DNA of 35,530 nucleotides from Lobosporangium transversale (Eukaryota), in NCBI RefSeq assembly GCF_002105155.1, contig NW_019029082.1, positions 1 through 35,530 on the forward strand, in the 5' to 3' direction. The translations under genes were made by a program, and so were the position numbers. The notes beneath the pieces were generated by a model, which was not told the DNA's origin, searched no databases, and was given only the letters and a program-made list of their open reading frames with translations. Shown in pieces: positions 3,785-35,530 of this stretch. Positions within the stretch are counted from its first letter, which is position 1. Each line of letters opens with the position of its first letter.

Positions 3785-4756
3785 ATGGACAACCTCACCA
3801 CTTCCTTGAAAGCTCTTAACCTTGATGCCAGTACCAGCCTATCCGTGCAGAACGCTGTGCAAACCTTCCTCGAATCCCGACAGGATAGTGCTTCTAGCGC
3901 TGCCGCCTTTAATGACCATGTCCGCACGGTGGCTGCTGTGATAAAACCTACCAAACCAGAACCATACGAGGGAAATGTCGACGCTGTCGCGGTCCTCAAC
4001 TTCTTGGAGAACCAAGAAGAGTACTTCGAGATCATGGAGCTTAACCACTCCCGTTGGGTCCGATATACCGTTGTCAACCTGAAAGGAGACGCCAAGGCAT
4101 GGTGGCGAGACTCGGAAATGACAATTGATACACCATGGGACACTTTCCGAAGTAAATTCATCGAAAACTTCACACCCCCTGACACGGCTTCTTCAGCCCA
4201 GAAAGCACTGGTTCAATTAAAACAAGGTAAATCCTCAGTAGCGGAATACACTGCCAAATTCCGCCGCCTCCAACGCCTCACACCCAAACTGGAGGAATCA
4301 TGGCTTGTCCTCCATTATACCTACGGCCTTGTAGAAGACACAAGCAAGGAAGTCCTCCTTCGCCAGCCTCAGACTCTCAACCAGGCCATCAAGCAGGCTA
4401 CGATGATCCACAGCATTTTACATTCCTCTAGACCCCCCATCATGACAAACCAAACAAGCCAACCCACACCGACCCCGATGGACCTAGACGCAATGCAGAT
4501 GATGTTCAATAACTTCCTACTACAGAGTACAAACTCCACAGGCTTAGCGAACTTCCATCGCCCCCCCTCGACTAACAACAGACCACTCTCCAAGCTCACC
4601 GAAAATGACAGAACAAAACTGCGCCGCGCAGGCGCTTGCTTTCGCTGCAGAAAGAAGGGACACATGGCCAAGAACTGCCGCGTGACTAGGAACTTGAACA
4701 ACCTGGAACAACAAGACGACTACGACGACTCGGGAAAAGAGGAGAGCGAGCTGTAG
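3785..4756 (+). CDS. gag: Gag, family A
   Basis: Retrotransposon capsid motifs (AKAWW, LKQG.SSVAEYTAKF), PMDLD and zinc knuckle CFRCRKKGHMAKNC. Confidence 0.95.
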   Translation: MDNLTTSLKALNLDASTSLSVQNAVQTFLESRQDSASSAAAFNDHVRTVAAVIKPTKPEPYEGNVDAVAVLNFLENQEEYFEIMELNHSRWVRYTVVNLKGDAKAWWRDSEMTIDTPWDTFRSKFIENFTPPDTASSAQKALVQLKQGKSSVAEYTAKFRRLQRLTPKLEESWLVLHYTYGLVEDTSKEVLLRQPQTLNQAIKQATMIHSILHSSRPPIMTNQTSQPTPTPMDLDAMQMMFNNFLLQSTNSTGLANFHRPPSTNNRPLSKLTENDRTKLRRAGACFRCRKKGHMAKNCRVTRNLNNLEQQDDYDDSGKEESEL

Positions 4757-4809
4757 ACCAGGCCAGCCTCGCTCTCACCACCAACCCTCGAGTCCTGGGC
4801 TCTAGAGGG
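4732..4809 (+). promoter_or_regulatory. -1 ribosomal frameshift signal: G GGA AAA plus downstream RNA structure
   Basis: The heptamer is in the gag frame and the -1 frame is open from it into pol. The structure is conserved in family C. Confidence 0.8.
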
Positions 4810-7800
4810 CGTAGTCATATGGATTTAAGTAGTAACAACAGTAATAAAAACTCTAGTTCTCCTAAATCCATGATTATGCCTTCTCGCTCCTCTCCCATAT
4901 TTTCTCTATCCTCTCTCTTATCTCTACCCTCTAAAAGCACCTTGCACCACACCACTTCCATTCCTCCGGATTCCCTAAATCACCTCTCCCCCGATTCCCA
5001 TCCCGCGTCATCTGTCACTGAAATCAAATCATCTTCAAACCAAGACACAAATGAAAATTCACCTACCCCCTCTACTTCCCACGAACACCTTGCTAGTAAA
5101 CCACCCCGTCGTCGTCGTCGTCATGCCACACACCTCCAATCCCTGTCCGCTGTCTACACCAATGCGAGACGACTACTAACCTTCATTGGGGCCGTCAACG
5201 GACACCCTGCGCGAATCCTCATTGATGGTGGAGCAGAAGGAAATGTATTGAGTTCAAAATTTTGCAGAAAACATAACATTATCATAGACAACGCGAACCC
5301 TATCCCTATCATTCATCCGAATGGCACAGCAGTCATGTCCCCAGGAACCGCATCTGTTACCCTTGAACGTGGTTCCTATGGTGAAAAGATTCAAAGTATC
5401 ATCTACCCCTCGAAAAAATATGATCTCATCCTAGGGAAACCTTGGCTAACCGCAGTCAATCCCCAAATCAACTGGCGCACTAACGATTTACACTTTGAAC
5501 ACAATGGTAAACACATACTATGGGAATGTCGAGGGCATACCTCCTCCTCCGCTCGTCAAAATTGCCTTTCTGCCATAAACTTTGCTGCATTAGCATTAGA
5601 ACCCGAAACGACAACATTCTTGGCCCAAGTAAGAACCACTTCACCACCAACAAACCTAGACTCAACACTACCCGAATCGATTCAACAAATTGTCCAAGTA
5701 GAATTTCCAGACCTCTTTCCTGACACACTACCGGACGGACTCCCTCAGGATCGTGGCGATAGCATGCGAATCGAGACTGAAAATAATACCGATCCACCTG
5801 TAAGACCAGTCATTCGCTTATCAATTGCTGAATTAGACGAACTAAAAACACAACTCACAGAACTACTGCGCAAAGGCTTCATCTCTCCAAGTACATCACC
5901 CTACGGAGCACCAGTTTTATTCGTTAAAAAGAAGGATGGCGGACTGAGGATGTGCGTAGACTACAGAGGATTAAACAAAATAACCCGTAAGAATCGCCAT
6001 CCACTACCAAGAATCGACGAGCTAATAGATCGTTTCAGGACAGCACGATTTTTTACAAAGCTCGACTTACTATCCGGATATCATCAAATGCGCGTTCATC
6101 CAGACGACCGACATAAAACGGCATTTCGAACACGCTACGGTCACTATGAGTTTAACGTCGTCCCTTTCGGACTCACCAACGCACCTGCCGCCTTTTCAGC
6201 CATGATGCGCAACGTGTTGGATCCTGTGCTGGATAAATGCACCGTAGTTTACCTAGATGATATACTGATTTATTCTGATAACAAAGAGCAACATCTACAA
6301 GACATCAGAAACGTTCTTAGGCTCCTACGCAAGGCAGGCCTCTTTTGCAAGCTTTCCAAGTGTTCATTTATGCAAGAGGAGACAGAGTTCCTAGGCCATG
6401 TTATATCCAAAGATGGACTCAAAACAAACGGAGCACTGGTTAAAGCAGTTAGAGAATGGCCAACACCCACAACACAGCGCCACGTCATGCAGTTCCTTGG
6501 ATTAACAAACTTCTATCATCAATACATCGACCACTATGCTGATATCGCGCTTCCCCTTACTGATCTGTTAGGCTCAACTACAACATTCTACTGGAGCAAG
6601 CCTCACCAAGAGGCCTTTGAAAGACTGAAGCAGGCAGTCACCATGGCACCCGTACTCAGAATTTTTGACCCTGCCCTAGCAACTTCCGTCGAAACTGATG
6701 CATCAGGTTTCGCCATTGGTGCAGTCTTGTTCCAAACAGATCACAAGGGCGAATCGCGCCCTGTTGCCTTTACATCACGAAAGTTGAGCTCTGCAGAACG
6801 AAACTACCCAACCCATGAGCAAGAATTACTAGCTGTCGTCCACGCCTTAAGAACATGGCGGTACTATTTGGATGGATCTCATTTTATTGTCTATACTGAC
6901 CATGCCACATTGCAGCATTTTCCAACCCAGCCAAACCTGACTCGGAGACAGGCCAGATGGATGGAACTCCTACAAGAATACGACTTCAACTTCAAGTACA
7001 AACCAGGCAAAGACAACATCGTCCCCGACGCTCTCTCAAGGAGGCCTGACCACAAGGCGCAGGATCCCGCCAGTGAGCAGATTAACTCCATAGAAATAAG
7101 TTTGGACCCAGGCTTACGGCAGCGCCTGATAAAGTGTTACCCATATGACCTTAAGTTAGGATCACTTTACGAAAGCTGCCGCGAGGCAAGTCCCTCTGAT
7201 CGTTATTTTGTTGCTGATGACCTATTGTGGATTAACATCGCTGGACAGACACGTTTATGTATCCCGAATGATCCTAACATTCGCGCTCTCCTACTTCATG
7301 ATGCACATGATTCTCCCATTGCTGGCCACCTCGGCTTCGAGAAAACATATGAAACCATGCGAAGGACTTTCTTTTGGCCACGAATGGCCCGAGACACCAA
7401 GACTTACATTGCATCATGCGAACAGTGCCAGCGAAATAAACCACTGCTTCATCATCCTGCCGGATTATTCAAACCTCTCGATATACCTCTTGAACGATGG
7501 GAAACTGTCACCATGGACTTCATTGGCCCTTTACCCAAGACGAACCGAGGGTTCAATGCCATAACTGTATTCGTAGACAAGTTATCCAAACAAGTCCACT
7601 TCTGCCCTAGCCATACAACGGACACTGCTTCAGATATCGCGCGACTCTTCTTCAATAATGTCTTCCGACTCCATGGCATGCCACGAGCTATTGTATCGGA
7701 CAGAGACTCAAGATTCACGGGACACTTCTGGACCACATTGATGAAGCTCATGGGAACTAAACTCCATATGTCTACAGCATTCCATCCTCAGACAGACGGA

Positions 7801-8571
7801 CAGACGGAGCGAGCCAACAGGACCCTGGAGGAAATGCTACGATCTTATGTCTCGTACAAACAGAATGACTGGGACTTGCTCTTACCAATGATGGAATTTG
7901 CATACAACAACTCCGTCAACCCCTCCACAGGGTTTTCCCCCTTTTTCCTAAACCACGGTCATCATCCCATTGTCCCATCATCCCTCTTGAAACCACCAAC
8001 AACAGATGTACCGGCTATCTCTACCTTCATTTCCACTCAAGCCTCTGCGTTGGCGCAAGCACAAGACGCAATAGCGACAGCTCAGGACATCCAAAAACGC
8101 CAAGCAGATAAAGCACGATCACCCGCCAGGTTCACTGTAGGCGATAGTGTCTTACTGAGTACGGAGCATATCACTGTCGCAGCTCACGCAAACCGACCCT
8201 CCAAAAAGTTAGAACCAAAATTCATTGGACCATTCAAAATCATAGAGAAGATCAACGACAACGCGTACAAGCTCGAGCTACCTCCGAACATGAAACAACA
8301 CCCTGTCTTCAATACAGATTTATTACGACATTATCACGAATCCCCGGAGAATTTCGGCGAACGAGCACCTGCCAGACCCCCACCAGATTTAGTCGATGGC
8401 GAAGAAGAATATGAAGTGGAAAAGATTCTGGATTACAAACTATTTGGCAGAACCCCCAAGTGGCTCGTGAAATGGAAGGGATATCCTGACGAAGAAGCAA
8501 CATGGGAACGGAGATCCTCACTAGTTAATGCAAAAGAAGCACTGGAGGAACTTCAAAAAATGCAACAGTAA
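4732..8571 (+). CDS. pol: Pol: protease-RT-RNaseH-integrase-chromodomain
   Basis: LIDGGA protease, YLDD RT, TDAS RNase H, HHCC and DDE integrase, GPF motif, chromodomain YEVEKIL..WLVKWKGY..ATWE; no stops. Confidence 0.97.
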   Translation, partial: GKRGERAVDQASLALTTNPRVLGSRGRSHMDLSSNNSNKNSSSPKSMIMPSRSSPIFSLSSLLSLPSKSTLHHTTSIPPDSLNHLSPDSHPASSVTEIKSSSNQDTNENSPTPSTSHEHLASKPPRRRRRHATHLQSLSAVYTNARRLLTFIGAVNGHPARILIDGGAEGNVLSSKFCRKHNIIIDNANPIPIIHPNGTAVMSPGTASVTLERGSYGEKIQSIIYPSKKYDLILGKPWLTAVNPQINWRTNDLHFEHNGKHILWECRGHTSSSARQNCLSAINFAALALEPETTTFLAQVRTTSPPTNLDSTLPESIQQIVQVEFPDLFPDTLPDGLPQDRGDSMRIETENNTDPPVRPVIRLSIAELDELKTQLTELLRKGFISPSTSPYGAPVLFVKKKDGGLRMCVDYRGLNKITRKNRHPLPRIDELIDRFRTARFFTKLDLLSGYHQMRVHPDDRHKTAFRTRYGHYEFNVVPFGLTNAPAAFSAMMRNVLDPVLDKCTVVYLDDILIYSDNKEQHLQDIRNVLRLLRKAGLFCKLSKCSFMQEETEFLGHVISKDGLKTNGALVKAVREWPTPTTQRHVMQFLGLTNFYHQYIDHYADIALPLTDLLGSTTTFYWSKPHQEAFERLKQAVTMAPVLRIFDPALATSVETDASGFAIGAVLFQTDHKGESRPVAFTSRKLSSAERNYPTHEQELLAVVHALRTWRYYLDGSHFIVYTDHATLQHFPTQPNLTRRQARWMELLQEYDFNFKYKPGKDNIVPDALSRRPDHKAQDPASEQINSIEISLDPGLRQRLIKCYPYDLKLGSLYESCREASPSDRYFVADDLLWINIAGQTRLCIPNDPNIRALLLHDAHDSPIAGHLGFEKTYETMRRTFFWPRMARDTKTYIASCEQCQRNKPLLHHPAGLFKPLDIPLERWETVTMDFIGPLPKTNRGFNAITVFVDKLSKQVHFCPSHTTDTASDIARLFFNNVFRLHGMPRAIVSDRDSRFTGHFWTTLMKLMGTKLHMSTAFHPQTDGQTERANRTLEEMLRSYVSYKQNDWDLLLPMMEFAYNNSVNPSTGFSPFFLNHGHHPIVPSSLLKPPTTDVPAISTFISTQASALAQAQDAIATAQDIQKRQADKARSPARFTVGDSVLLSTEHITVAAHANRPSKKLEPKFIGPFKIIEKINDNAYKLELPPNMKQHPVFNTDLLRHYHESPENFGERAPARPPPDLVDGEEEYEVEKILDYKLFGRTPKWLVKWKGYPDEEATWERRSSLVNAKEALEELQKMQQ

Positions 8572-15017: not shown

Positions 15018-16036
15018 ATGAGGACGCTTTCTAGGGAAAAGGTACAAAATGCTCAGGCCTTACTTCGACAAGGGAAGTCTACAAGCGAAGTGGCAAGGCA
15101 ACTTGGTATCTCTATTTCATCGGCAATAAGGATCAGGAGGGACGTCAAGGACAATATTCCTAAACCCAGAATGGGCAGACCCTCATTGGTTTCCCCTGCT
15201 ACCAAGAGGGTTATTGCACGCGAGGTTGATAGGGGAAACTTAGATCCATTCTGGCAGTTCAAGAATACATCAGATCGAGCCATGGAGTGCATGTCAGTGC
15301 AGAGACTGCCCGACGCTATGTAAAATCAGAGGGTTTGAAAAACTATGGCCGCCCATTCAAGCCTAGGCTGACAAAAATGCAGATTGCGAAAAGGAAAAAT
15401 TTTGCCCTCAACCACCTTGACTGGACTGTTGATGACTGGAAGCGAGTGATGTTCTCGGACGAAAAGCTTTTTGGAAGGCTAGGGTCCTTAGGAGGAAGAA
15501 CACAATATAGGCGACCCGGCCACAGGACTTTAGAAGATCAAGATGTTAGAGAGAGATCAAGGAGAGCACATAACAAACTTATGTGGTGGGGCTGTATCAC
15601 TTATCATGGTGTAGGCGATGGTTGCAGGATCCCTGTCACAGTTGATTCCTCTTTATATGTTGATGTTCTACAAGATTATGTCCTCGGCTCATGGAAGTGG
15701 TATGGCCAGGACCCTGAAAAGTTAATTTTTCAGCAGGACAATGCAAGTGTTCATACGAGTAGGATGGTTAAAGAGTTCTTAATTAAGTCACACATTACCA
15801 CTTTGGAGTGGCCTCCAGATTCTCCTGACCTCAACCCTATCGAGAATGTATGGGCCTACATGGATCATCGGCTCAAGGGATATGAGAAGGTACCAAAGGA
15901 TCTGGATGAACTATGGGAAAGACTACAGGATATCTGGACATCTATTCCACCTGACTTCCTTGATGAGCTATATGAAAGTATGCCACGAAGGGTAGAGGAG
16001 CTACATCGCAAGAAAGGAGGTCGTACACATTACTGA
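15018..16036 (+). pseudogene. Tc1 transposase with one frameshift near 15245
   Basis: HTH and GRP motif, then FSDE, FQQDNA and SPDLNPIENVW with 34 residues between D and E. Confidence 0.9.
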
Positions 16037-17557: not shown

Positions 17558-17795
17558 TTGCTAGGTCAAAGCGTACCACGGAAATGATACATATATCCTA
17601 GGATTTTTTCGGACTTAGACCTTCCTTTTTTAGTCTAACCGTTCGGATAAATTATTGGTAATCTATACTTAGATTCATTTAGATCTTACGTCATGACTGA
17701 CTCAATCTGAAACAATCTAGGAGTTTCCGGATGAGACCCGATTTGGATAATGATTCCTTTTTGGGTTACCGTTCACCCTCTCTCCCGAGAGTCCG
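17558..17795 (+). repeat. Displaced, slightly diverged fragment of the Penelope-like terminal repeat
   Basis: Reverse complement of ~30899-31137 with a few substitutions; bounded on both sides by MULE TIRs. Confidence 0.9.
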
Positions 17796-19710: not shown

Positions 19711-20682
19711 ATGGAACACTTGAATAACGCCCTTTCGTCCATCGATCTTCCTCTGAACATTCGCGAAGCCATAGCTACTGCTTTTAATCAGGCCCTCTCT
19801 ACTGCCAAAGCCAACGAAGCCGCTGAGAATGACCTAGCCAGAACCCTCGCCACGGTCCTAAAGCCACAGAAGCCTACGCCTTACGAAGGAGCTATTAACG
19901 CTGTTGCAGCCTTAAACTTTGTCGACAGCCTGGAGGAGTATTACACTATTGTCACACTCACGCCATCCAAATGGGTTCGATACGCTGTCCTCAGTCTCAA
20001 TGGCGAAGCCAAGGCATGGTGGAGAGATTCCGGGTTGAATCTCGATACACCTTGGGCTGACTTCCGTAAAGCATTCCTCCGTCAGTTCACCCCTCCAGAT
20101 TCTGCGAATGCAGCTCGCCGAGCGTTGGATAAACTTCGTCAGGGAAGGATGAGTGTGGCAGAATATACGAGCAAGTTTAGAAGCCACCTACGTCTGGCTA
20201 CAAATCTCGACAAAGACTCTGCTTTGCAAAAATACATGCTAGGCCTTGAGCCCGAAACAAGCAAGCAGGTAAGACTTAGACAGCCAGAGACGTTGGACGA
20301 TGCCATTGAGCAGGCGACCATTGTCCACAGTATTCTACATCCCATCGATGCCACCCCTGTATCCGCTACCCCGAACGCCTTATCACCCCATCATGAGAAT
20401 AATTCTGGCCCTACACCAATGGATCTCGATAACATGAGAATGTTGGTTGCCAACCTGTACACCTCTCTCCATCAGCAACGACCAAACAGAAACCACTCCA
20501 AGCCAAGCTCGCTACCCAAGCTCACAGCAGCTGAACGAGAACGTTGCGTTCGTGAGGGGCGTTGTTTCAGATGCCGGAACCGAGGTCATAGAGCCGAACA
20601 ATGCCAACGCACCTCTGTCTTTAATATAGAAAACAATGACCATACGCTTTCTGAGTCGGGAAAAGAGGAGGGCGAGCAGTAA
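19711..20682 (+). CDS. gag: Gag, family C
   Basis: Colinear with family A Gag; CFRCRNRGHRAEQC knuckle. Confidence 0.93.
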   Translation: MEHLNNALSSIDLPLNIREAIATAFNQALSTAKANEAAENDLARTLATVLKPQKPTPYEGAINAVAALNFVDSLEEYYTIVTLTPSKWVRYAVLSLNGEAKAWWRDSGLNLDTPWADFRKAFLRQFTPPDSANAARRALDKLRQGRMSVAEYTSKFRSHLRLATNLDKDSALQKYMLGLEPETSKQVRLRQPETLDDAIEQATIVHSILHPIDATPVSATPNALSPHHENNSGPTPMDLDNMRMLVANLYTSLHQQRPNRNHSKPSSLPKLTAAERERCVREGRCFRCRNRGHRAEQCQRTSVFNIENNDHTLSESGKEEGEQ

Positions 20683-21859
20683 ACCAGGCCTGCCTCGCCC
20701 CCTCTAGCCCCAGCCTTCAAGCCCTGGATAATAGAGGGCATGGTCAGTTACAGTTGATGACTACAAATAAAAATCCTTTGTGCACAAATATAACATCCAT
20801 GCCCCTTTCTGATCACTCTATTGCTCCCACTGCATCTACTTCCTTACATCTACTCTCTAAGTATTCACCTCATCCTGATCCCCATTCCCCTACTCATTCC
20901 TCATTGCTAAAAAACAATCCCCTCTCCGACCCTATTTTCCCCTCCACTGATCCTTTCACTGTTTCCACTTCACTCACTTCCACTCATTCATCTACCCCTA
21001 GTTCATCCAATCGCCACTCCCATTGTCGTAACGAAATTCGCCTTCAATCCTTCAGCCTTACCTATGACAAACATAAAAACTCTCGCCGACTCCTTACTTT
21101 CATTGGAGCAGTGAATGGTCGACCTGCGCGCATTCTTGTAGATGGAGGGGCCGAAGGCAATGTCATAAGTTCCTCTTTCTGCGAGAACACACATGTTCCG
21201 CTAATTGAGGGTAGACCCATTCCTGTCATTCTTCCCAACGGTACCGAGACAATTGCTCAGCACACAGCCACGTTCACCCTCGCCCGCAACGCGTATCAGG
21301 ATAAAATCAACGCCATTGTTTATCCTCTATCCAAATACGACCTAATTTTGGGTAAACCATGGCTGATGGATATCAACCCTCGCATCAATTGGCGAACAAA
21401 TGATCTGCATTTTGAATACCAAGGTACCCCGGTCTTGTGGCCTTGCACTGGCATCGACAGGAAGCCTAGACAGCGATCTTCCGTCATATCTGCTCTTAAC
21501 TTCCTTACCGTTGCCTCGGAACCTGATGCCTCTGTATTCCTCGCCCAAGTTCGAGTTCCAGTACCTGTCTCTAGCAGTAGTTCTGAACTACCGGACTCTA
21601 TCAAGCAAATCGTTCAAGTCGAATTCCCTGATGTCTTTTATACAACGCTTCCTGATGGCCTTCCCCCTGACAGAGGTGATAGCATGCGTATAGAGACTGA
21701 CCCTTATGCTGACCCACCTGTCCGACCTGTCATCAGATTGTCGATCGCTGAGCTTGATGAACTGAAGAAGCAGCTAACTGATCTTTTACAAAAAGGATTA
21801 ATCTCACCGAGCACCTCACCATACGGTGCTCCAGTCCTCTTTCTGAAGAAAAAGGATGG
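20658..21859 (+). pseudogene. pol: Truncated Pol, family C (protease and first RT residues)
   Basis: G GGA AAA at 20658-20664; LVDGGA; SPSTSPYGAPVLF. Confidence 0.9.
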
Positions 21860-22382
21860 TGTCACGAACAGCAAGCAATGTCTAGCTCATGAATTGATGA
21901 ATGACTTTTGTCTGATTCGAATCTGAAAAAGATCACGTGTGCTTGATTAATTTGTTCCGCTCATTTCCTTCACTCATTCCTCCATGCATAGTTTGCCTGT
22001 CAAGCCAAGTCGCGTCTCCTAGTTTTCTAGCTCCGTGAATAGCTCCAAGGATTCTAGAAGAGCTATAAACCAATAACCAAGGCTTATAGTGCCAAGGAAC
22101 CTTGAAATAAGATTGCACCAGATATCTTCCTCGGATCCTGTGTATTAAGTTAACTCAACACTTGGAGTTCCGCATATGGTAAAAGTCCTTAGGAAATATT
22201 TGAGTAAGCTTTATTTAGAGTTCTTGAAGCGCGTCTCCGCTTCAGTCAAACAAGTATAAATATGATAGATTTGTAACATAGTAAACCTCAGTCTGCCATA
22301 AAACTATTCTTGAATCTCCTAAGTTCATTCTTGTTCCTAAATCACTTACCTTCTCTTGCAATCGTCCTGTCAGTCCTTGACA
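21860..22382 (+). mobile_element. Solo LTR-B variant with a divergent 3' part and no TSD
   Basis: Matches the other B LTRs to ~22296, then diverges but ends TGTCAGTCCTTGACA; flanks GATGG/TTAAT. Confidence 0.9.
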
Positions 22383-23766: not shown

Positions 23767-26355
23767 TTAGACAGTCAACAGCTCATTGTCAATTCTTTGA
23801 CTATTGCCACTCTTGTCCTTCCAGTGAGCACTCATCTTCACTGTATCAAAACTCCTATCGTGCCAGAAATGCACCAAATTCACCCCTTGGTCCAGTTCCG
23901 CGTCGGTTTGCCAGTATGGGTGCTCAAGGTAGTCGTCCTCCCGAGTAAAATGAACAACCCAAGCTTCTTCTGCTGAGAGTAAGCGTTTATAAGTTGGCGT
24001 CTTGCTGATACAGTCCTTAATAGAAGATTGACTTCCTGTAGCCAAAAGCTCGATAACAACCGTCGGCTCTCCTGCTTTCTTGATGACAATATCACTATAT
24101 TTGTGGTCCTCAAGCTCATGGAGGTGCCACTGGCTAATGATCCCATATCCTTCTATTTTGTTTAGCCAGTTGGTGAGAATCCTCATCAATTCCGTGTCAT
24201 AGACGCTCTCCCGGAGGACTTTGGCATTGTATCCACCCATAACCTTAACTGTTCTCCCCGATCTTTTGTATGATCGATATTCCGACTGTATAATCAAGTT
24301 TTTATCGAAAAATCGAAGAGCAATCTTCATAGTCTCCAGAATATCCAATAATCCTCCTTGACTTTCCTTTGGGGGGTGACTCCGAAGGAGCGTGGGGATA
24401 TTTTGATGAATAATATATCTCCTCACAAACGAGTCAATGAATGCTGAGGCCATACGGTAGTTACTGCCATCAAGTCTTATCAGCACCCCTTCTGCAGTTA
24501 GGAAGTCTGCCAATCTCTGTTGTTCCATGTCTGAGATAGATATATCGCCGAGATACCCAATAAAATCTGTTCGGAGAAGTTAACAGCATCTGTAGCTGAT
24601 TCACTCAAAAGTGAATCGACCATCCTTCTAAAAGTATGGTCGAAAGCATCTCTCATCTGATTGTCTGTGGAGAAGTCCTGCCATGTATCGTAATCGAGAC
24701 AATTCGTCGAGTCGTTGACTTTCGAGCGAAGATCTCATGAATGGAGCGTCCACAAAGACAAATCATTCCTGGATGACTATTGACATTGAGCACAATTCAT
24801 TGTATTAGAATGGCACATCAACTCGTGGAGAGTTAACTAAGCTTAAAAAACATACCCATTTGACTTCCAGTGTATGTCTCGAATAATCTCATCATCTATT
24901 TTAATCATCTCATCTTCGCATAGTCATTAAAGAGCTGCTGCGTTTGATCAAGAGTGAAATACGGGTTCCTGATAGTATTGTTGACATTGAACGGGGTATG
25001 TGTTGACCTGTTGTGCTAAGGTGCTGAAGACTAAAGGTTCCACATAAGACAATACTGTCAATGGCGTATAAATGGTTGTTCTGTCGGATTGCTCGAAACG
25101 CCTGTAAGCATTGGTTGCGGATCTCGTCGCTTGCGTTAAACAGTAAATCAAACTCGTCAACCAAGATGACAATCTTCTCGTCCTTGAATTTAGTTCGACC
25201 GAAAGCATCGAGAAAATCTCGTTTGGTTGTAATATCATCGACTTTATAGTTGCGGCGAAGAGCATTTCCAAAAGTTTTCCAGAAATCAGGCTCATTATTG
25301 CCAACGGCAACTCCCTCAAATGATAGTCTAAATAAAAAATAGAGGGTCAGTACTGGTATATTAGCGCATACATTGCATCCACTTTATCCATTTTCACAGA
25401 AGTTGGCTTACGGGAGGCAGCGATATCCAAAGTCAGCTAATTGGGTGATAAGTCGATACAACCGTGTTGTTTTTCCAGAGGCACGTGCGCCTATGAGCAT
25501 CACTATCTCGCGGTCAAAAACGCCCTGTAGTATTTCCTCATTGTTGTCATGGTCCGCAGGATCCACATAGTAGACCTGATTAACTTCGTCGAATCTGATC
25601 GGTTCATTGACGGTCCACCTCTTTTTTTTCAAAAGTCGCGGTACTGAAAAAAATTAGAAAAAAAAAACAGCAAGACCTGTCAGAAGAGAAAATAAGGAAT
25701 CGGTTCCAATCCTTAAGGGAGAATTAGCTTACATAAGTCTTCGGCCCTCCTCTTTTTTTCCGAGTCTGTTGGTAAAGGAAGCAATGATAGAAATTTGCAA
25801 GAAAAAAAGAAAATAAGCATCAGAGGAAGTCGTCAAGCACATGTGCGATGATTAACCTTATGAAAAAAAGAGAAAGCCAATTAAACAAATGAGTCTTACT
25901 CGAAGTGGAAGTAGACGGATCTATACCGCAATAATGCGAAGGATCATTAGACATAATCAATGATTACAACAAGCGTCACCACATGGCATGCCGCAGTAAC
26001 AGGCACAATTAGAATTTAACGGCTTCTTACCTGCCGACGGCCTCTGGACAATGACGTGTATGGTTTTCTTTTCTGGTGTAGTGCCGAAAATCTCAGAGAT
26101 CTTGCTTGTTGCACAAAGCTTTTTTGCATTTGGGTGTTCTGAAAGTGTAATGGTTTTTTCGTCCTCATCGTCTCCGATTACGATGGAGACATGCCAGAGA
26201 TTCAATTTGTCGGCAACAATCTCTCGGAAGTCGTTTTCTTTTTCCTTCTTGATTGCTTTTTTGAGAGCAGCAATTGAGTCATCAGCATCCAATTGGACTT
26301 TAAATGCGGAAGAGTCGCCATCGAGAATGCAAAAGAGCATAATTTTTTGAGTCAT
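23767..26355 (-). pseudogene. Crinkler (CRN) family gene: CRN N-terminal domain, P-loop NTPase, PD-(D/E)xK-like nuclease; frameshifted
   Basis: LFCILDG..IHVIVQRP header; micro-exons 25900-25920 and 25733-25765 splice in frame; Walker A GARASGKTT; Walker B ILVDEFD; YSDIVI..VVIEL; about four frameshifts between 24570 and 25000. Confidence 0.85.
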
Positions 26356-26645: not shown

Positions 26646-29600
26646 GAATTCCCTTAAATACTCAAGTTGCGTAGTGGTATTTTTTTGTTAGAATTTATAA
26701 TGAGGTGACGTAGTAGGCTATTTGCTAAATCCACCCTTTTCTGCCAGTTGCTTCTTCCGAATCACAATCGCCATCTAATCCTATTCCATCGCTCATTACT
26801 ATTTTATTTATGTCAGGATCGCTCTCCTGCAGACTCCATTCAGGCCCTTTTCGTGTTTCTGTAGTCCATCTCCTGTCCCAGGTAACCTTTTTATTTTTTT
26901 AAAAAAAAGAAAAAAAAAAAAAAACGCGTAAATTCAAATTAGCCTACTTCATTTCTAACTCTCTGTCTTCCTCCTCTCTGAGATAGATAATATTAGCCGT
27001 CCACAATGGTATTTATAAATATCACGAACATGCTAGCTATTTCGATTAGCTTATAATTAATTATTTTTCTTGATGCAAATTATAGGTCCTCACCACTGAT
27101 ACCTTAATTTCGAGTAACGGTGAGGATGCAGCTGAAGACCTTGAGCTAGGCTCCGAATTCTACAATCATGATGAAGCTAGCGACGTTGATACGGATCCTG
27201 AAGAGCACGACTGTGATGATGGTGGAGACTATTCTTCGGATGTGTCAGATTCCGAGCCAGAAATAGTGTGGGGGCCAGTTGAACCATCCGGTGAAGACAG
27301 CACCTATGGGAATGCTCTCGCACCATCTAAAAATAACGTAGAAGAAGTAGAGGATATATCGAGATTGAGTCAAGATAAGGAGGCTCGTGCAATCAGTCTG
27401 GCTTCTACAATTGTGTCTGCGCAGCTACAAGAATACTCTTGGATTGAGTCGACGGTCCCAGAGGCTAAGATTAAGGATATTGTTGATGGCCTCAGGATTA
27501 AGAAACAGGACTACGATTATTTGCCGCACGTATTCTATGTGGACAAAAGGGACTTTGAACTGTGGAAAGACCGAGATGGCAGCGATCACTTTTTTATTTG
27601 GAATAAAGGCAACTCTGAGATAAATGGTAGAAATGAAGACAATGAAGACTCTGAAATCACCAACGACAATGATAGCAAAGGCAAACTGCGTTCATTTCAA
27701 CTTTATTTCTGCCACTGTGCAGGCGCCCCACGCAAAAAAAAGATTACTGACCAAGATCAACTACTTGAGAGGCCAGCCAAGAAAACTCGCAATGTTTATA
27801 AACCGACCAAGAAAGTAGGCTGTAAAGCCAGGCTAATTGTTCATGACGTAAAACCCGATATGGAAGAGTTCGCAAGTAGAGGAGAAAGGAACCAGCTGCG
27901 TGTGATATATTACTACAAGCACACTGGGCATACTCTTGCCAGTCTCGAGGACTTTCAGCATCTCAGAGTGACAGAAGAAACAAAATCGCGAATTCGAAAC
28001 CTTGTCCGTTTAGGTCTCTGTACAAGAAAGATTCTGACAAGGATAAACCTGACTGGTAGCCAGGCATTCTCGCGACACCAAAGAGGGTCTTTAGAGCGTG
28101 ACCATGTCCTGAAGTATGAGGATGTGTACAATATTTATTATAAATATTCAAGTGGGCAGAGTCAGCTTGAAAAGAATGACTTAGTCTCGATGAGGCTGTG
28201 GATGGACAAACTAAAGGACAAGGGCTTCACTGTATTCACACTCGCCTACCACATCATAATAGACGGAGTGAATCATGCAAGATTTGCATATGGGTTTATG
28301 TCGCCGTTCCAGAAATCAGTTTATGGATCCAATTTTAAACACATTGGGCTAGATTCAACACATGGAACAAATCGCTCTAAACACGAGCTTTACACCATAA
28401 TTGTGCGGAACCCACAAAGTCTGAGTGCTATCCCAGTTGCCTTCTTGCTTACGAACGATCATAGCCATGTACCGTTGGCAAGATGGTTGACACATATCAG
28501 AGAAACCATTGGCTCACCTGAATACATCACCACTGATGATGCTCGAGCAGAATATAAAGCAATCCGATTGGCGTTTGGAGACTCAGCCACAGTTCATTTA
28601 TGTCTATGGCATGTTATGAAAGCTTGGAGCACCAAGCTTCGAAGTGTTATCCGTGCAACGCAAGACAAGGCTGCTAAGGAGTTGAGGGAAGAAGCGATGG
28701 GAGAGCTCCGTAGAATTTTGTTTGATCCAAACCGTACGCGAGCTGAGACTCTTATTTCAGAATTCGAGTTGAAATGGCAGGATCATAATGAGGGCAAAGT
28801 CTGGAATTATTTTAGGGAACGCTACCTCAGTGAAGACCGAAGGAGAAGGTGGATGAAATGTTATCGTATGGGAAAGTTTTATGCTGGGATGGATACTAAC
28901 AATTACGTCGAGTCCTGGCACAACCACCTTAAGTCGCACTTCTTACGAGGTTATACAAACTGCAGAGGAGATAGATTGATTTATATCTTAACTCATGATG
29001 TAGATGAGTTTTACCAAATGATGGCAATGCAGACCGTGCGGCGCTATGGGCGACATTCAAAAGGCGAGAGAGATGACATTCACCAAAGAAAATTTCTAGA
29101 TGGACTAGAAGACCTTCCACAGCGCATTGTTCACGAGCAGCAAGTGGGTGACCGAACCGTTTACTGTGTGCGCTCGTTCTCCGTATCTGGCGGATATTAT
29201 TTCGTGGTTGCCACGAATCAAACTATCTCAAGATGTAACTGTCAGTACTTTATGTATTCTCAGCGCCCCTGCAGACATATGTATCTTTTGCATCAAGTTC
29301 ATAAGGATAACCCAGACCCACCGCTCCACATCATACACGATGTCCTTGAGAGGGTCCCTGATAGACATGCTATGATCCAGAATTACCAAGATGGCCTGGA
29401 AGGGGATGTTAACCCAAGCATCAGTGATGCCCTGTTGGAGGTAGAGGATGCTGAAGCAGAGGAGGTTGCTGAGGCAGAGAGGATTGCTGATGCGGTTACT
29501 GAATCTTTGGAGATACTCAAAAAGGGCCTCCATGATTCAGATAGCATTGTGAGATGTCCCGACGCAGCAAGGGAGTTAAGTGATATGGTTGAACGGTATT

Positions 29601-30666
29601 TTTCTTTACAAAGAACGATAAATACATCTGGGAACCAAAAACGGCAGCGCCAATAAAAAAAATTTTTTTTACATGTATATATTTGATTTAAAAACTATTC
29701 AATCCAATTCAATCAAAGAGAGCACAATCAAAATAGCCAATCAGAAATCAGGATTTCATTTCTTTTTTTTTTTTTACAGAACGATGAAAAAAGAAAATCC
29801 ATTCTCTGTTGATGGAGAATATCTACAAGACTGAAAATCATATATTTGGTAGGGAAGACCCATCGGTACGATTTAAAAAAAAGTTGAAAAGATTCGGTTA
29901 AGTCTTCAGTAGGATACCTCCATTCAAAGAACTTGTACATCGAAAATAATCAGGATTATGATCATCTTCTTTCGTTCAAAAGTAATATTACTCTGTCAGT
30001 AATGGCGATACACATTGTAAAATATAGATTCAAGTAGCCAAAAGCTATATCTATAAGTCGTATATATGCACTCCAAGGAACCAGCAATGCGGTTGTCAAG
30101 AAAATGGCCATTGAATTCTCTAAATAGAGTAATATCTGGAATTTATAGTCTCTCCTTCATCTTTAAACAACAAGGATTGTTATTTTTGTAAACTAAGTCG
30201 CTGTAAAAATACCACAGTTGGATTCAGCATTGACATGTCCTTTTAACCTGAAAATATGGTGAAGTTTGAAGGTTTTATCATAGAGCTCTACTTTTTTTAC
30301 TAATTTCAACGAAACATTTTTTTAGACAAGTGTCTACCAAGCTATACTTGGTTTCCAAAGTCAGTTTTTATGTCACTACGGATACTCAATTTCTTCAGAA
30401 ACTTCAATTGCTACCCTAGATCGCTTTATATTAGTGTCTTTTGTCATTATCCAAAGTTTGGTTTGGATTGAGATTCATTTGAATGACTTTTACATATGAG
30501 AACTGGTTTTCCCATATGATTATGGACTTAGAGACAGGTTAGATTGAACTTCCATGTATATTTCGGCTCACATGACCCACATGGCCCACATGACTTGTAT
30601 GGAAATAACTTTTATTTTTTATAAGGGCGTCTCATATTTGGCCAACTTGAGTATCTAAGGGGACTC
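26646..30666 (+). mobile_element. MULE-1, full-length Mutator-like DNA transposon
   Basis: 24-bp imperfect TIRs (GAATTCCCTTAAATACTCAAGTTG versus GAGTCCCCTTAGATACTCAAGTTG, three mismatches); intact transposase; no TSD visible. Confidence 0.88.
27006..29656 (+). CDS. MULE transposase with SWIM zinc finger, ~857 aa
   Basis: LDSTHGTN, TTDD, CLWH, TNNYVESWH and CNC..PCRH. Predicted ATG-only exon 27006-27008, intron 27009-27085, exon 2 open from 27086. Confidence 0.9.
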
Positions 30667-30760
30667 CTTATTTGGAGCCAGCAAACCGGTTATTTGTGGC
30701 TTTCTACTCCTTAACTAGGGTCACGTGACAAAATTTATTTTAGGTATCTATTTTTAGGGT
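30667..30760 (-). repeat. Remnant of an older Penelope-like terminal repeat
   Basis: Matches ~31143-31237 with one substitution and one T fewer; ends at TTTTTAGGGT. Confidence 0.85.
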
Positions 30761-31289
30761 TTTTGATAAGTAGGATGGGTTTTTTTGTGAAAAAGTGGAA
30801 AAAGTGACTGAGAGTGAGAAAGAAGACTGCGGGACAAGTGCTTGTTTCGATCTTTTCTCTTCAGCCTTGTCTTCTTTTTATACTTTTTTCACGCCTCTCG
30901 GACTCTCGGGAGAGAGGGTGAACGGTAACCCAAAAAGGAATCATTATCCAAATCGGGTCTCATCCGGAAACTCCTAGATTGTTTCAGATTGAGTCAGTTA
31001 TGACGTAAGATCTAAAATTAATCTAAGTATAGATTACAAATAATTTATCCGAACGGTTAGACTAAAAAAGGAAGGTCTAAGTCCGAAAAAATCCTAGGAT
31101 ATATGTATCATTTCCGTGGTACGCGTCGACCTAGCAAACAGGTTTATTTGGAGCCAGCAAACCAGTTATTTGTGGCTTTCTACTCCTTAACTAGGGTCAC
31201 GTGACAAAATTTATTTTTAGGTATCTATTTTTAGGGTCTATTTTTAGGGTTCTATTTTAGGGTTTTTTTAGGGTTATTTTTAGGGTTTT
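30756..31289 (-). repeat. Proximal pseudo-LTR
   Basis: Appears identical to 34383-34916 (offset 3627). Confidence 0.95.
30819..30877 (-). ncRNA. Type I hammerhead ribozyme
   Basis: Minus strand AAAGAAGAC-AA-GG CTGAAGA GA-AAAGA-TC GAAA CAAG-CA-CTTG TC / CC-GCA-GTCTTCTTT; predicted GUC cleavage between 30833 and 30832. Confidence 0.85.
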
Positions 31290-31316
31290 CTTTTAGGGTT
31301 ATTTTTAGGGTTAGGG
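31213..31316 (+). repeat. Internal variant telomeric repeat tract
   Basis: TTTTTAGGT, TTTTTAGGG, TCTATTTTTAGGG, TTATTTTTAGGG etc., ending in TTAGGG. Confidence 0.9.
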
Positions 31317-31472: not shown

Positions 31473-34367
31473 CTACAATCGACTCCTTATTGGGGCGGAT
31501 TGGAGAATCTTTTTATTATAGGTGTTCAACTGGTTGCGCAGGTTGGAGCCTTTATAAATTATCCATGTGGTTTGTGTATTCTCATAACGGGCAGGTTTGA
31601 GGGTATGGATATCTCGTAGAATCATACGTCCAAACTGTTCAAGTTTGTCACGTCCAGGGATGTTATGGAGGAACATTTTTTTGATAATAGTATCATTTTT
31701 CTGAGACGAGGGTGCCGGGTACAAAAGAGTATTCCGTTCATCGTATGAGTGTAATCTGAGTTGATTGTTGATTACATGTGAGGGGTAGTTTCTATTAAGA
31801 AGATGTTGGGCAAATTGTGCTGTGGCATGGGTGTGGAAAGAAGACTGACTAGAGTTTCTAATTAGTCTTTGGTTTTCACCATTAATCCAGTTAAAAACAT
31901 ATTTCCTAGGGTAGTATGTATCTGGATCAGTGTATAGGTGTTTATTAACGGGTTTGTCGAAAGGAGCAATAGTAAATCGGGTTGGACTAGTATTGTTATC
32001 GACAGAAATAAGAAGGTCGAGCATAACTACTTGTTGACCATTGTTACCATGGTCGATAGTGATATTAAGACTTTGACAAGAGGCATAAATCTGATGAAGT
32101 TTAATGTCAATGTATGGTTTCAAAAGATTGAATGTCTCTTTAGACCAGGGAAGGTTATCATGTTTGGTAGTTCTGATTATGGCAAAGCCATCATCTATAT
32201 ACCGGAACAGGGTGATGTCAAAGAAATCGAGTTTATAGAAAAACATTGGGGAATTAGTGCCAACTGGAAGGTTGTCAGGAAAAACTCCATGGAATTGTTG
32301 TTGTTTCTCTACGCAGCATGCAAAGAGGCGGGCTATGGTGGGTGCCATGGGAGTTCCCATAGCTAAGCCTTTGACTTGTCTGTAATTATTTGTAAGGTCA
32401 GAGACAAGGCAGTTCTTATTAACCCATTCTGCGAGTTTCAGACATATTTGGATTTCATAATTGTAAGAATGATTGCAGAAGTAGTGTAGTATGGTTTTTC
32501 TGGCTTCTTCAAAGTCGATGTTACCATACATGTTGATGACGTCGAAAGCTGCTAATGAGTAATGGCAGTAAGGATCAAAGTCAAAATTTTCTAGATAACG
32601 TATTAGTGTGGGGGTGTCGGGAAGATCTCTAGGGAACTCATTAAGTAGAGGGCGCAGGTTTCTATCGACAAACTGACTAATAGTGTGTGTTATCCAAGGG
32701 AAAGAGGGGACTATAGGTCTAGCACCGGGTGGTGACTTATGTATTTTAGGTAAAAGATACATAACTGGGACAGTATAGAAGTTAGGATTGGTTCTAACAT
32801 TATCTCTTATTAGTTTAGCTTCTGAGAGTAATTTATTTTTAATTCTAAGAGGACTAAGATTGACTATAGAAAAGAGTGAGTTTATCATATTGTCAATGGA
32901 GAACGAAGGGCACGGGACATAACAGGAAGTATCTGTTAGAAGTTTCGTAGTCTGGGATGTATACCAGTCTAGGTCCATAATAGTGAGTCCTAAGTTTTTA
33001 TCAGCAGGGCCAATGATAAGTTTATGGGTAAGCATAAAGTTAATGGTCTTGTTGATTTTGGAAAGGAGTTTTTTGTGAGGATTGTTTTCTCTGATTTTAG
33101 TTATATTATTAATTAACTGAGGTTTGTAGGCATCGAACAGAACATTAGCTAGATTAATATCTAGTTTATTAATATTCCTACAAAGTTGGTTACGCAATTT
33201 CTTTAGTTCTGAGCTCAGAACAACATAGTTGGGAGGTTTATGTATATTGAAATTGACTCCTTTATTTAAGACTTGAAGAATATCATGGGGGATGGATTGT
33301 ACGGAAGACATATTGTTGACTCCGACAAAATCATGTAAATCTACTTTTTTTGTTTCTGAGGGGATGGGGCTTTTTTCACGGGGCCTTTTCCTTTCTTTAC
33401 ATGGGTGGTTTTCTTGGAGGACGTTGGGGGACCACCTTTCTTCTTGTCTTTCTTCGCCATCGATGGGCCTTTTGGTCCTTTGTATTTGTTGGTGTCGTTC
33501 TGTCGACGTGATGGCTTGGGTTTGCTTGGCTTCTTCTTCGAGGCGTCCTTCTTGGTATTCTAGAGGGAAAGTAGAGTTGATCTTAGAATAGATTATATTT
33601 AATCGTGGAGCAAACCAAAGGGAAACAATTATCTTGAATACCTTTAATCCAAGATTTAATTGCTGGAATTCTGCAGTGGCTCGTAATACTTGCACTTGAG
33701 CAGAAAACTCAATAGCAGTGGCACGAATCAGCTTGTAGGTGAAGTCTTTACCCAGATTATTCAGATGAGAATTGTTTTCAACGGCCACAAGGGCAGATGA
33801 AAGGGTGTCCGCTAGCTGTCTGGGGAGGGTGTCATTGAGTTCACTTTGGCATTGTTGGATGATATTTGCTTTGTCAGCTTTAATGGCCGATACTAACAAA
33901 TTGTCAAACGAAGTGCTAAGTGTAGCAAGGACGTCCTTTGACAGGGTAACACGGTTATTGTTGACAGTAAGATGTCCCCAATAGCCTAGTTGTGTCTTAG
34001 CGTTGACTTCACGCAGAATCTTCTGAGCCATTCGGATTTTATCCAAAAGAATGGCCGCCTTATTGACAAATTTGCTTAAGATGTCTGCGGCAACCCTGTC
34101 AGTCATCGTTCCCTTTTTGAAAGAGGGAAGATAGGAACCAGGGTTCAGAGAGGTGTCACTATTCCCAATATGATTATTGAGACGAGCGACGAGCTGCTCG
34201 AGGGTGGGAAGGTCTGCCGGTGCAGTCCCTCCTCCCATCTCGGCATCGGCATCGATCATAGCCTGACCTGGAACTTGTTGACCTGGGGTGACTTGGAAGA
34301 CATCCTGGTTTCCACGGGCAGAGCTTGACGATGAGGAGGGGCCGGGGGCAGCGTGAGTATTGACCAT
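31473..34367 (-). CDS. Penelope-like reverse transcriptase ORF, 964 aa unspliced
   Basis: PADKNLG, LPKIHK..RPIV, FDVINMY, GLAMGTPMAP, FRYIDD, MLDL and DKP motifs; the C-terminus ends without an endonuclease. Confidence 0.93.
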   Translation of the reverse strand: MVNTHAAPGPSSSSSSARGNQDVFQVTPGQQVPGQAMIDADAEMGGGTAPADLPTLEQLVARLNNHIGNSDTSLNPGSYLPSFKKGTMTDRVAADILSKFVNKAAILLDKIRMAQKILREVNAKTQLGYWGHLTVNNNRVTLSKDVLATLSTSFDNLLVSAIKADKANIIQQCQSELNDTLPRQLADTLSSALVAVENNSHLNNLGKDFTYKLIRATAIEFSAQVQVLRATAEFQQLNLGLKVFKIIVSLWFAPRLNIIYSKINSTFPLEYQEGRLEEEAKQTQAITSTERHQQIQRTKRPIDGEERQEERWSPNVLQENHPCKERKRPREKSPIPSETKKVDLHDFVGVNNMSSVQSIPHDILQVLNKGVNFNIHKPPNYVVLSSELKKLRNQLCRNINKLDINLANVLFDAYKPQLINNITKIRENNPHKKLLSKINKTINFMLTHKLIIGPADKNLGLTIMDLDWYTSQTTKLLTDTSCYVPCPSFSIDNMINSLFSIVNLSPLRIKNKLLSEAKLIRDNVRTNPNFYTVPVMYLLPKIHKSPPGARPIVPSFPWITHTISQFVDRNLRPLLNEFPRDLPDTPTLIRYLENFDFDPYCHYSLAAFDVINMYGNIDFEEARKTILHYFCNHSYNYEIQICLKLAEWVNKNCLVSDLTNNYRQVKGLAMGTPMAPTIARLFACCVEKQQQFHGVFPDNLPVGTNSPMFFYKLDFFDITLFRYIDDGFAIIRTTKHDNLPWSKETFNLLKPYIDIKLHQIYASCQSLNITIDHGNNGQQVVMLDLLISVDNNTSPTRFTIAPFDKPVNKHLYTDPDTYYPRKYVFNWINGENQRLIRNSSQSSFHTHATAQFAQHLLNRNYPSHVINNQLRLHSYDERNTLLYPAPSSQKNDTIIKKMFLHNIPGRDKLEQFGRMILRDIHTLKPARYENTQTTWIIYKGSNLRNQLNTYNKKILQSAPIRSRL
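33341..34367 (-). CDS. Predicted spliced 314-aa ORF1-like protein with a Lys-rich tail (exons 34367-33642 and 33559-33341)
   Basis: GTATTC...CTAAG...CTCTACTTTCCCTCTAG 82-nt intron; the spliced frame gives 72 aa with 25 Lys. Confidence 0.6.
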
Positions 34368-34382
34368 CTTGAGAGGAACTTG

Positions 34383-34916
34383 AGGGTTTTTGATAAGTAG
34401 GATGGGTTTTTTTGTGAAAAAGTGGAAAAAGTGACTGAGAGTGAGAAAGAAGACTGCGGGACAAGTGCTTGTTTCGATCTTTTCTCTTCAGCCTTGTCTT
34501 CTTTTTATACTTTTTTCACGCCTCTCGGACTCTCGGGAGAGAGGGTGAACGGTAACCCAAAAAGGAATCATTATCCAAATCGGGTCTCATCCGGAAACTC
34601 CTAGATTGTTTCAGATTGAGTCAGTTATGACGTAAGATCTAAAATTAATCTAAGTATAGATTACAAATAATTTATCCGAACGGTTAGACTAAAAAAGGAA
34701 GGTCTAAGTCCGAAAAAATCCTAGGATATATGTATCATTTCCGTGGTACGCGTCGACCTAGCAAACAGGTTTATTTGGAGCCAGCAAACCAGTTATTTGT
34801 GGCTTTCTACTCCTTAACTAGGGTCACGTGACAAAATTTATTTTTAGGTATCTATTTTTAGGGTCTATTTTTAGGGTTCTATTTTAGGGTTTTTTTAGGG
34901 TTATTTTTAGGGTTTT
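34383..34916 (-). repeat. Distal pseudo-LTR merging into the telomere
   Basis: Direct repeat of 30756-31289; ends 16 nt upstream of the ATG. Confidence 0.95.
34446..34504 (-). ncRNA. Type I hammerhead ribozyme, second copy
   Basis: Same sequence as 30819-30877; predicted cleavage between 34460 and 34459. Confidence 0.85.
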
Positions 34917-35530
34917 TTTTAGGGTTTTTTAGGGTTTTTTAGGGTTTTTTAGGGTTTTTTAGGGTTTTTTAGGGTTTTTTTAGGGTTTTTTAGGGTTTTT
35001 TAGGGTTTTTTAGGGTTTTTTAGGGTTTTTTAGGGTTTTTTAGGGTTTTTTTAGGGTTTTTTAGGGTTTTTTTAGGGTTTTTTAGGGTTTTTTAGGGTTT
35101 TTTAGGGTTTTTTAGGGTTTTTTTAGGGTTTTTTAGGGTTTTTTAGGGTTTTTTAGGGTTTTTTAGGGTTTTTTAGGGTTTTTTTAGGGTTTTTTAGGGT
35201 TTTTTAGGGTTTTTTAGGGTTTTTTAGGGTTTTTTAGGGTTTTTTAGGGTTTTTTAGGGTTTTTTAGGGTTTTTTAGGGTTTTTTAGGGTTTTTTAGGGT
35301 TTTTTTAGGGTTTTTTAGGGTTTTTTAGGGTTTTTTAGGGTTTTTTAGGGTTTTTTAGGGTTTTTTAGGGTTTTTTAGGGTTTTTTAGGGTTTTTTAGGG
35401 TTTTTTAGGGTTTTTTAGGGTTTTTTAGGGTTTTTTAGGGTTTTTTAGGGTTTTTTAGGGTTTTTTTAGGGTTTTTTAGGGTTTTTTAGGGTTTTTTAGG
35501 GTTTTTTAGGGTTTTTTAGGGTTTTTTAGG
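34917..35530 (+). repeat. Telomere (TTTTTTAGGG)n
   Basis: About 60 T6AG3 units, some T7, with the G-rich strand running to the sequence end. Confidence 0.97.

Follow-up and report, generated by a model that had tools for sequence, protein, structure and literature searches.

A retained intron as a probable switch between a lysine-tailed ORF1 protein and a reverse transcriptase fusion in a telomeric Penelope-like element of Lobosporangium transversale

Introduction

Among the Penelope-like elements (PLEs), those of the Coprina group typically carry one open reading frame (ORF) and those of the Athena group two, according to sections of PMC13159263. Portions of PMC8557442 place the known PLE introns in 5′ untranslated regions (UTRs), mark conserved introns with triangles (its Fig. 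1) and describe the significance of intron retention in these elements as unknown. For plant Ty1/copia elements, experiments set out in part of PMC5580714 have revealed that splicing causes a frameshift, a stop and premature termination, and that full-length RNA arises by intron retention. Here we analyse 35,530 nucleotides (nt) of the fungus Lobosporangium transversale (NCBI RefSeq assembly GCF_002105155.1, contig NW_019029082.1, positions 1 to 35,530; 'the window'), a stretch that terminates in an endonuclease-deficient (EN-minus) PLE at a telomere. We consider it very likely that a spliced form of the RNA of this element yields a helical, lysine-tailed ORF1 protein (ORF1p) of 314 amino acids (aa), and that its reverse transcriptase (RT) is likely made only from intron-keeping RNA, as a predicted 964-aa fusion.

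Results

A hidden intron and its spliced product

The features on which the analysis turns are as follows.

31473 to 34367, minus strand: 964-aa ORF on unspliced RNA, made up of an ORF1 core, an intron-coded peptide, a linker and a PLE-type RT
33642 to 34367, minus strand: coding exon 1, 242 aa, common to both products
33560 to 33641, minus strand: intron of 82 nt, phase 0, GT-AG, of length 3n+1, GTATTC...CTCTAG, inside the 964-aa ORF
33341 to 33559, minus strand: dual-coding segment, read in the spliced frame as a 72-aa Lys-rich tail plus TAG and in the RT frame as an E/Q/R-rich linker
33344 to 33350, minus strand: A AAA AAG heptamer, not conserved and probably incidental
33257 to 33266, minus strand: candidate internal 3′ end, comprising an AATAAA at 33266-33261, where it encodes N-K of LNKG, and the last position of a spliced contig, 33257

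The original prediction, made from the letters of the window, had placed in the 964-aa ORF an 82-nt GT-AG intron with a branch-like CTAAG and a pyrimidine tract, and all of these details are present in the sequence, with a branch-like TCTAAGA 28 nt upstream of the acceptor (CTAAG at 33586-33582). The intron has no stops in the RT frame and four in the +1 frame. Joining of the exons gives 314 aa with a 72-aa tail, NTKKDASKKK...PQKQKK (25 K, 2 R, 3 D), which is closed by a TAG at 33343-33341. When the whole ORF of the window was scanned by rule, a frame-shifting intron followed by a basic tail was found at this acceptor only, with two donors 15 nt apart.

Run X1, the sole public run with this stretch, consists of contigs that are presumed to represent RNA, and four of them could be aligned. 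One, of 1097 nt and depth 84.9, spans 34412-33257 and skips exactly 33560-33641 (CT..AC ends), thereby giving the 33642/33559 junction proposed as a check on the prediction. The spliced form thus exists. The contig stops 84 nt past the stop codon and 4 nt past the AATAAA, before the RT core, and the RT region is covered by two short contigs only, of depth 4.5 and 2.2.

A search with the exon-1 protein returned seven proteins. One, a hypothetical protein of Lobosporangium transversale recorded in NCBI on three contigs, is identical to the 314-aa product. Five further hypothetical proteins of 332-354 aa, from Entomortierella, Gryganskiella, Linnemannia (two) and Mortierella, have LGLK-like residues followed by the same Lys-rich tail, and these models from the other species share the tail end PS/H-R/K-R...KFKGP; the seventh is partial and lacks the tail region. 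The predicted basic ORF1-like protein is therefore supported by the spliced contig, by gene models of six Mortierellaceae species and by all five whole relatives described below.

The trimmed structural model of exon-1 residues of about 85-240 is a three-helix bundle (predicted local distance difference test (pLDDT) 77, predicted template modelling score (pTM) 0.63); a first AlphaFold model of ORF1p had been poor (pLDDT 48.5) and gave no Foldseek match. The trimmed bundle is generic, its best matches being designed or unrelated bundles (Z 10.7), below the level that is meaningful for helical bundles. The structure search gave no viral match, and matches in the Atlas were unnamed or under threshold. 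No Pfam family was found for ORF1p, and none of 73 pattern matches in viral contigs was related. The basic Lys tail is probably disordered and probably binds nucleic acid.

Conservation of the intron and of the dual-coding segment

A metagenome scan yielded 39 loci, of which five are whole single-ORF relatives (L001, L002, L003, L006 and L008, which with the window form a set of six elements), 16 have two overlapping ORFs and 18 are partial or broken and were left unused. All five whole relatives have a phase-0, 3n+1, GT..TAG intron at the same place, of 100, 94, 85, 73 and 82 nt, respectively, the candidate chosen in L003 and L008 being tied with others on a simple score. These introns are richer in A and T than their flanks; stops are absent from their RT frame and number 2-5 in their +1 frame. 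The tails that they would uncover are of 40-103 aa, with 16-30 K+R and 1-4 D+E, and finish near the point where the RT N-terminal motifs begin. A fixed-rule scan of whole ORFs, with thresholds chosen after the data had been seen, gave a match in the linker of all six single-ORF elements (with one extra match downstream in L008), in none of nine two-ORF loci scanned and in none of three other ORFs of the window.

The original prediction had also asked which frame is conserved in homologues, and substitutions favour the spliced Lys-rich frame. Mismatches in the dual-coding segment, counted by codon position of that frame, are 29/29/40, 24/25/43 and 21/23/37 for the pairs among the window, L001 and L002, and identity is 42, 49 and 61% in the spliced frame versus 40, 36 and 54% in the RT frame. 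The window tail has 25 lysines, against 16.6 ± 2.3 when the RT frame is shuffled synonymously (0 of 5000 shuffles reach 25), and lysine is above the synonymous null in five of the six elements. These comparisons indicate selection in favour of the tail frame, with the RT frame kept open.

Read-through of a retained intron into the RT, a further part of the prediction, is likewise supported. None of the six elements has a stop in the RT frame of its intron, for which the chance is 0.11-0.27 each, the elements being related, and the peptide encoded by the intron shows 35-44% identity between the three closest elements, with mismatches mostly at position 3. Together, the open frame and the identity of the peptide point to translated retention.

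The six intron elements span deep branches of one RT clade (FastTree, unrooted). Beyond them, 126 long relatives were collected, 86 with the landmark motif and 40 that were dropped. Of the 52 closest long proteins, 41 have in their linker window the K-V dipeptide encoded across an AAG|GT donor (21.7 ± 3.4 when shuffled), against 30 with it in a control window (24.6 shuffled); among 34 more distant proteins 15 have it (9.8 shuffled). As a qualification, eight of the 52 had contributed to the query alignment, and K-V-x patterns were picked after the alignments had been viewed. The V-[SR] dipeptide was not enriched among the same proteins (30/52 vs 29.7). The pattern suggests that the intron is clade-wide. 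For spliced forms in distant relatives, a mixed exon-1 profile search gave one weak match (E 0.008).

Four distant proteins outside the intron clade (P0043, P0083, P0112 and P0069) have K-V-S/R followed by a Q/G/E/R-rich linker. Taken alone, they hint that fungal Coprina-like elements beyond this clade may also have the hidden intron.

Two-ORF relatives

All 16 two-ORF loci (L011, L013, L015-L018, L021, L023-L026, L029-L031, L033 and L035) have an RT ORF that overlaps the end of ORF1 in the -1 frame, and in 15 of them that end is basic (K+R 25-40%). Ten have A_AAA_AAC no more than 70 nt into the overlap; two have no heptamer and four have others. It should be noted that L013 and L033 are near copies and that 11 of the 12 loci placed in the tree form one branch. 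The layout matches the frameshift with a pseudoknot that, according to the legend of Fig. 1 in PMC8557442, can separate ORF1 in PLEs; slippage in these loci is predicted. Retention of a 3n+1 intron makes the same change of frame at the corresponding point, where the basic tail begins, and it is therefore likely that intron retention substitutes for -1 frameshifting at this position. Because the tree is unrooted, no direction of change between intron and frameshift is claimed.

As a separate observation, A_AAA_AAC in several of these loci is followed by complementary stretches resembling GAGGGGC...GCGCCTC, a candidate frameshift stimulator.

Element anatomy and telomeric setting

Around the ORF, the element has the following parts.

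about 34901-35530, minus strand: telomeric repeat array, CCCTAAAAAA on the minus strand (repeat family D1), capping the 5′ end of the element
34380 to 34900, minus strand: 5′ pseudo-long terminal repeat (pLTR), 521 nt, found by blastn (repeat families D5, D7 and D11)
34502 to 34509, minus strand: TATA-like TATAAAAA, directly upstream of the hammerhead-like motif and similar in L001 and L003, with a putative function
34447 to 34503, minus strand: hammerhead-ribozyme-like motif, CUGAAGAG...CGAAAC...GUC, closed by AAGAAGAC/GUCUUCUU
about 31320-31274, minus strand: short telomere-like repeats before the 3′ pLTR
30753 to 31273, minus strand: 3′ pLTR, 521 nt, found by blastn
30760-30668, minus strand: truncated head of a further pLTR after the 3′ pLTR

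Between the pLTRs the 964-aa ORF is the only ORF. It has RT motifs ADKN (aa 455) and YIDD (32201-32190), and for a profile of the window ORF and eight relatives the sole matches in the PDB were TERT (E 0.003). The 964-aa window protein itself has no Pfam match; its relatives carry PF00078. No GIY-YIG endonuclease was found, either as a Pfam match in the window protein or as PF01541 in close relatives. With an RT containing DKN, no GIY-YIG, a subterminal position, a telomere-capped 5′ end and short internal repeats in reverse complement to the telomere, the element has the features of an EN-minus telomeric PLE, and the same anatomy is described for such elements in parts of PMC8557442 and PMC13159263. 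The pLTRs are direct repeats that are 99.8% identical by blastn, which suggests recent activity of an element that is also probably transcribed.

The array at 35530-34901 is built from an unusual telomeric 10-mer, TTTTTTAGGG when read on the plus strand, with occasional 11-mers. The units of the relatives differ, being TAACCC in L003, which also lies between TAACCC arrays, and CCCTAAA variants in L001 and L002. In the window and in L001-L003 the internal short repeats of each element match its own flanking telomeric unit.

The core nucleotides of the hammerhead-like motif are kept in all four aligned elements (the window and L001-L003), and an outer helix is predicted. The motif resembles the hammerhead consensus. 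It has no Rfam match and no covariation, and free folding does not yield a hammerhead.

Two observations concern pLTR sequences elsewhere. A 79-nt contig of X1 (depth 367) joins a pLTR end to a telomere-like pLTR head (joint 34383/31306; 30753-31306); the joint follows the hammerhead-like motif and would fit either pLTRs arrayed in tandem at other genomic sites or a retrozyme-like RNA of high abundance. A 239-nt internal pLTR fragment, 97.5% identical and in the opposite orientation, lies at 17558-17795, about 13 kb from the element.

Other features of the subtelomeric stretch

The remainder of the window belongs to a subtelomere that is dense in transposons.

1660-2703, plus strand: Ulp1-like protease ORF
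3785-8571, plus strand: chromodomain Ty3/gypsy element, with the gag stop codon 60 nt before the pol ATG
15018-16036, plus strand: Tc1-like DDE_3 transposase
19711-21926, plus strand: truncated copy related to the Ty3/gypsy element at 3785-8571
23767-26355, minus strand: ORF with a Crinkler N-terminal domain (PF20147, E 5e-24); a 253-aa ORF that has no Pfam match lies downstream of it
27860-29656, plus strand: MULE transposase

A ACCAGGCC..CCTCGC stretch (family D15), similar in the two Ty3/gypsy copies, comes after the end of gag in both and may serve as a signal for readthrough or recoding. The Crinkler ORF and the 253-aa ORF are probably exons of one CRN-like gene.

Discussion

According to the model that we favour, the spliced RNA would be the abundant form and would give rise to ORF1p. 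It is rather probable that this RNA ends early, at a probable internal poly(A) site some 85-110 nt past the stop; since such an RNA lacks the RT core, the RT could not be encoded by it. The unspliced full-length RNA would then serve as both the RT mRNA and the template for retrotransposition, and in the fusion made from it a near-neutral E/Q/R linker would replace the basic tail. The efficiency of splicing would set a high ratio of ORF1p to RT for assembly of the ribonucleoprotein, with retention of the 3n+1 intron making the change of frame that is otherwise made by the -1 frameshift predicted in two-ORF relatives. On balance we also lean, with less assurance, towards a wider reading in which a deep clade of apparently single-ORF telomeric PLEs are covert two-protein cassettes, where a retained 3n+1 intron has taken the place of the -1 frameshift and the dual-coding tail, under selection, is accompanied by an internal poly(A) site.

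Several observations weigh against this interpretation. No X1 contig crosses the unspliced intron and the exact 964-aa protein is absent from the protein collection searched, which leaves the fusion a predicted product. The spliced contig terminates in adapter and not in poly(A). An AATAAA is found at this place in three of the six elements, where codon usage gives a chance of about 0.4-0.5 each, and its conservation was rejected as evidence. Contig depth is a poor measure of expression, and X1 is a single run of presumed RNA, so the spliced form could in principle be DNA; the gene models are predictions and may share RNA data with X1, at least for the 314-aa protein. An open +1 frame is unremarkable alone, being open for 72 codons in 37% of shuffles of the window and common under the null across elements (0.21-1.0), and the lysine excess is absent from L006 (P 0.37). 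Finally, the joint probability of 10^-4.6 over the six elements overstates their independence because they are related.

The skip in X1 could also come from a processed DNA copy, or from a cryptic intron that the host splices incidentally, with the single ORF of the element as its sole functional product, given that PLE RTs can copy RNAs and that the run is RNA by presumption. We regard this as most improbable, as the spliced frame is under selection, the tail motif is kept in gene models of six species, deep-branching relatives have the same intron geometry, and depth is uneven (85 vs 2-5), which would be expected of RNA more than of DNA. In a further rival reading the intron and ORF1p are real and the RT comes from another RNA, through an internal start or an in-frame splice that skips the linker, with the open frame of the intron incidental or vestigial. 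This would be in keeping with the lack of an intron-retaining contig in X1 and with a methionine after VNN in the window. However, that residue is isoleucine in proteins P0001-P0007 and missing from P0009, no stop interrupts the RT frame of the intron at any of the six DNA loci and all long relatives read through it, which together make such a source of RT very unlikely.

The original prediction had envisaged control of ORF1p and RT by two routes, of which the second was a -1 slip on spliced RNA at A AAA AAG, back into the RT frame, giving a fusion of tailed ORF1p to RT. The heptamer is in the correct frame, the distant two-ORF relatives share the -1 geometry with A_AAA_AAC sites, and L001 has A_AAA_AAC 12 codons before its own stop. 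Nevertheless, a heptamer occupies the last two tail codons in one element of the six, while three others have some heptamer elsewhere in the tail and two have none; its chance is P 0.19 at the last two codons and 0.84 anywhere in the tail, and shuffling yields a heptamer of this kind in 43-85% of tails. The 74 nt downstream form no stable structure (-9.4 kcal/mol, z -0.22 vs shuffles; pseudoknots were not searched), so that neither a conserved heptamer nor a stimulator, the marks of a programmed -1 frameshift signal, was found in the window. Moreover, the site in two-ORF relatives is at the start of the overlap and not the end, the spliced contig stops short of the RT core, and a working slip would not need an intron that is open in the RT frame, yet it is open in all six. 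The slip, which we hold to be very unlikely, is therefore set aside; the retention route is the one supported, and RNA binding by the tail and the setting of a protein ratio are plausible.

If the retention model is correct, intron retention in PLEs gains a testable role as a switch between a structural protein and an RT fusion, and would be functional in telomerase-related retroelements: only the unspliced RNA would encode RT and be copied, which would explain why genomic copies keep the intron. The definition of fungal EN-minus elements as having one ORF would need revision. The findings also point to a swap of frameshifting and splicing at one homologous position, and to convergence with the expression of plant copia elements in the sister group of telomerase. 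A practical consequence is that ORF1 genes appear to be misannotated as hypothetical host genes across Mortierellaceae, giving fungal annotations a family of spurious host genes. The host of the element is a culturable fungus, in which the switch can be tested.

Coprina is among the known systems closest to the element. Sections of PMC8557442 and PMC13159263 describe Coprina as lacking an endonuclease, located at chromosome ends with a telomere-capped 5′ end and an RT with DKN, and as having pLTRs with a hammerhead-like motif and short reverse-complement telomeric repeats; these features recur in the window, where the hammerhead-like motif is a candidate. The window element is also genomically single-ORF, like Coprina, with two products predicted. 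In those sections, however, Coprina elements have one ORF, or two plain ORFs in Ascochyta lentis, whereas the one ORF of the window hides a second, spliced product; the intron group forms its own supported branch, apart from the named basidiomycete and ascomycete matches, in Microbotryum and Pochonia, in an unrooted FastTree made without reference Coprina sequences. With Athena/Terminon and other two-ORF EN-minus PLEs, as portrayed in parts of PMC8557442, the element shares a helical or coiled-coil ORF1 upstream of the RT. Unlike these, it would change frame by keeping a 3n+1 intron and not by slippage, so that the default genomic reading is the fusion; Athena has two ORFs and a bdelloid rotifer host, the window one genomic ORF and a fungal host.

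Spliceosomal introns that are kept through retrotransposition are reported for Penelope of D. virilis and for Chlamys-3 in portions of PMC8557442 and PMC3846280, where they lie in the 5′ UTR or promoter region or give N-terminal isoforms and no switch between ORF1 and RT is described. Figures and Repbase notes aside, the portions of literature text searched (PMC8557442 and its supplement, PMC13159263, PMC5408684, PMC4209133, PMC6431247, PMC3846280 and bioRxiv 10.64898/2026.07.22.740005) do not describe any PLE in which an intron controls a switch between ORF1 and RT, and a prior mention is possible. A functional parallel is found in an unrelated class of retroelement: in plant Ty1/copia elements (shGAG of EVD and BARE1) and Drosophila copia, as covered in part of PMC5580714, a single gag-pol-like ORF is spliced into a shifted frame with a stop to give a short mRNA for the structural protein, and unspliced RNA gives the polyprotein. 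The window, too, has a spliced isoform in which a frameshift leads to a stop. It differs in that the shifted frame adds a selected basic domain of 40-100 aa and no prompt stop, which makes the segment truly dual-coding. What appears to be new here is a copia-like splicing strategy in a telomeric PLE, with such a dual-coding segment at its centre.

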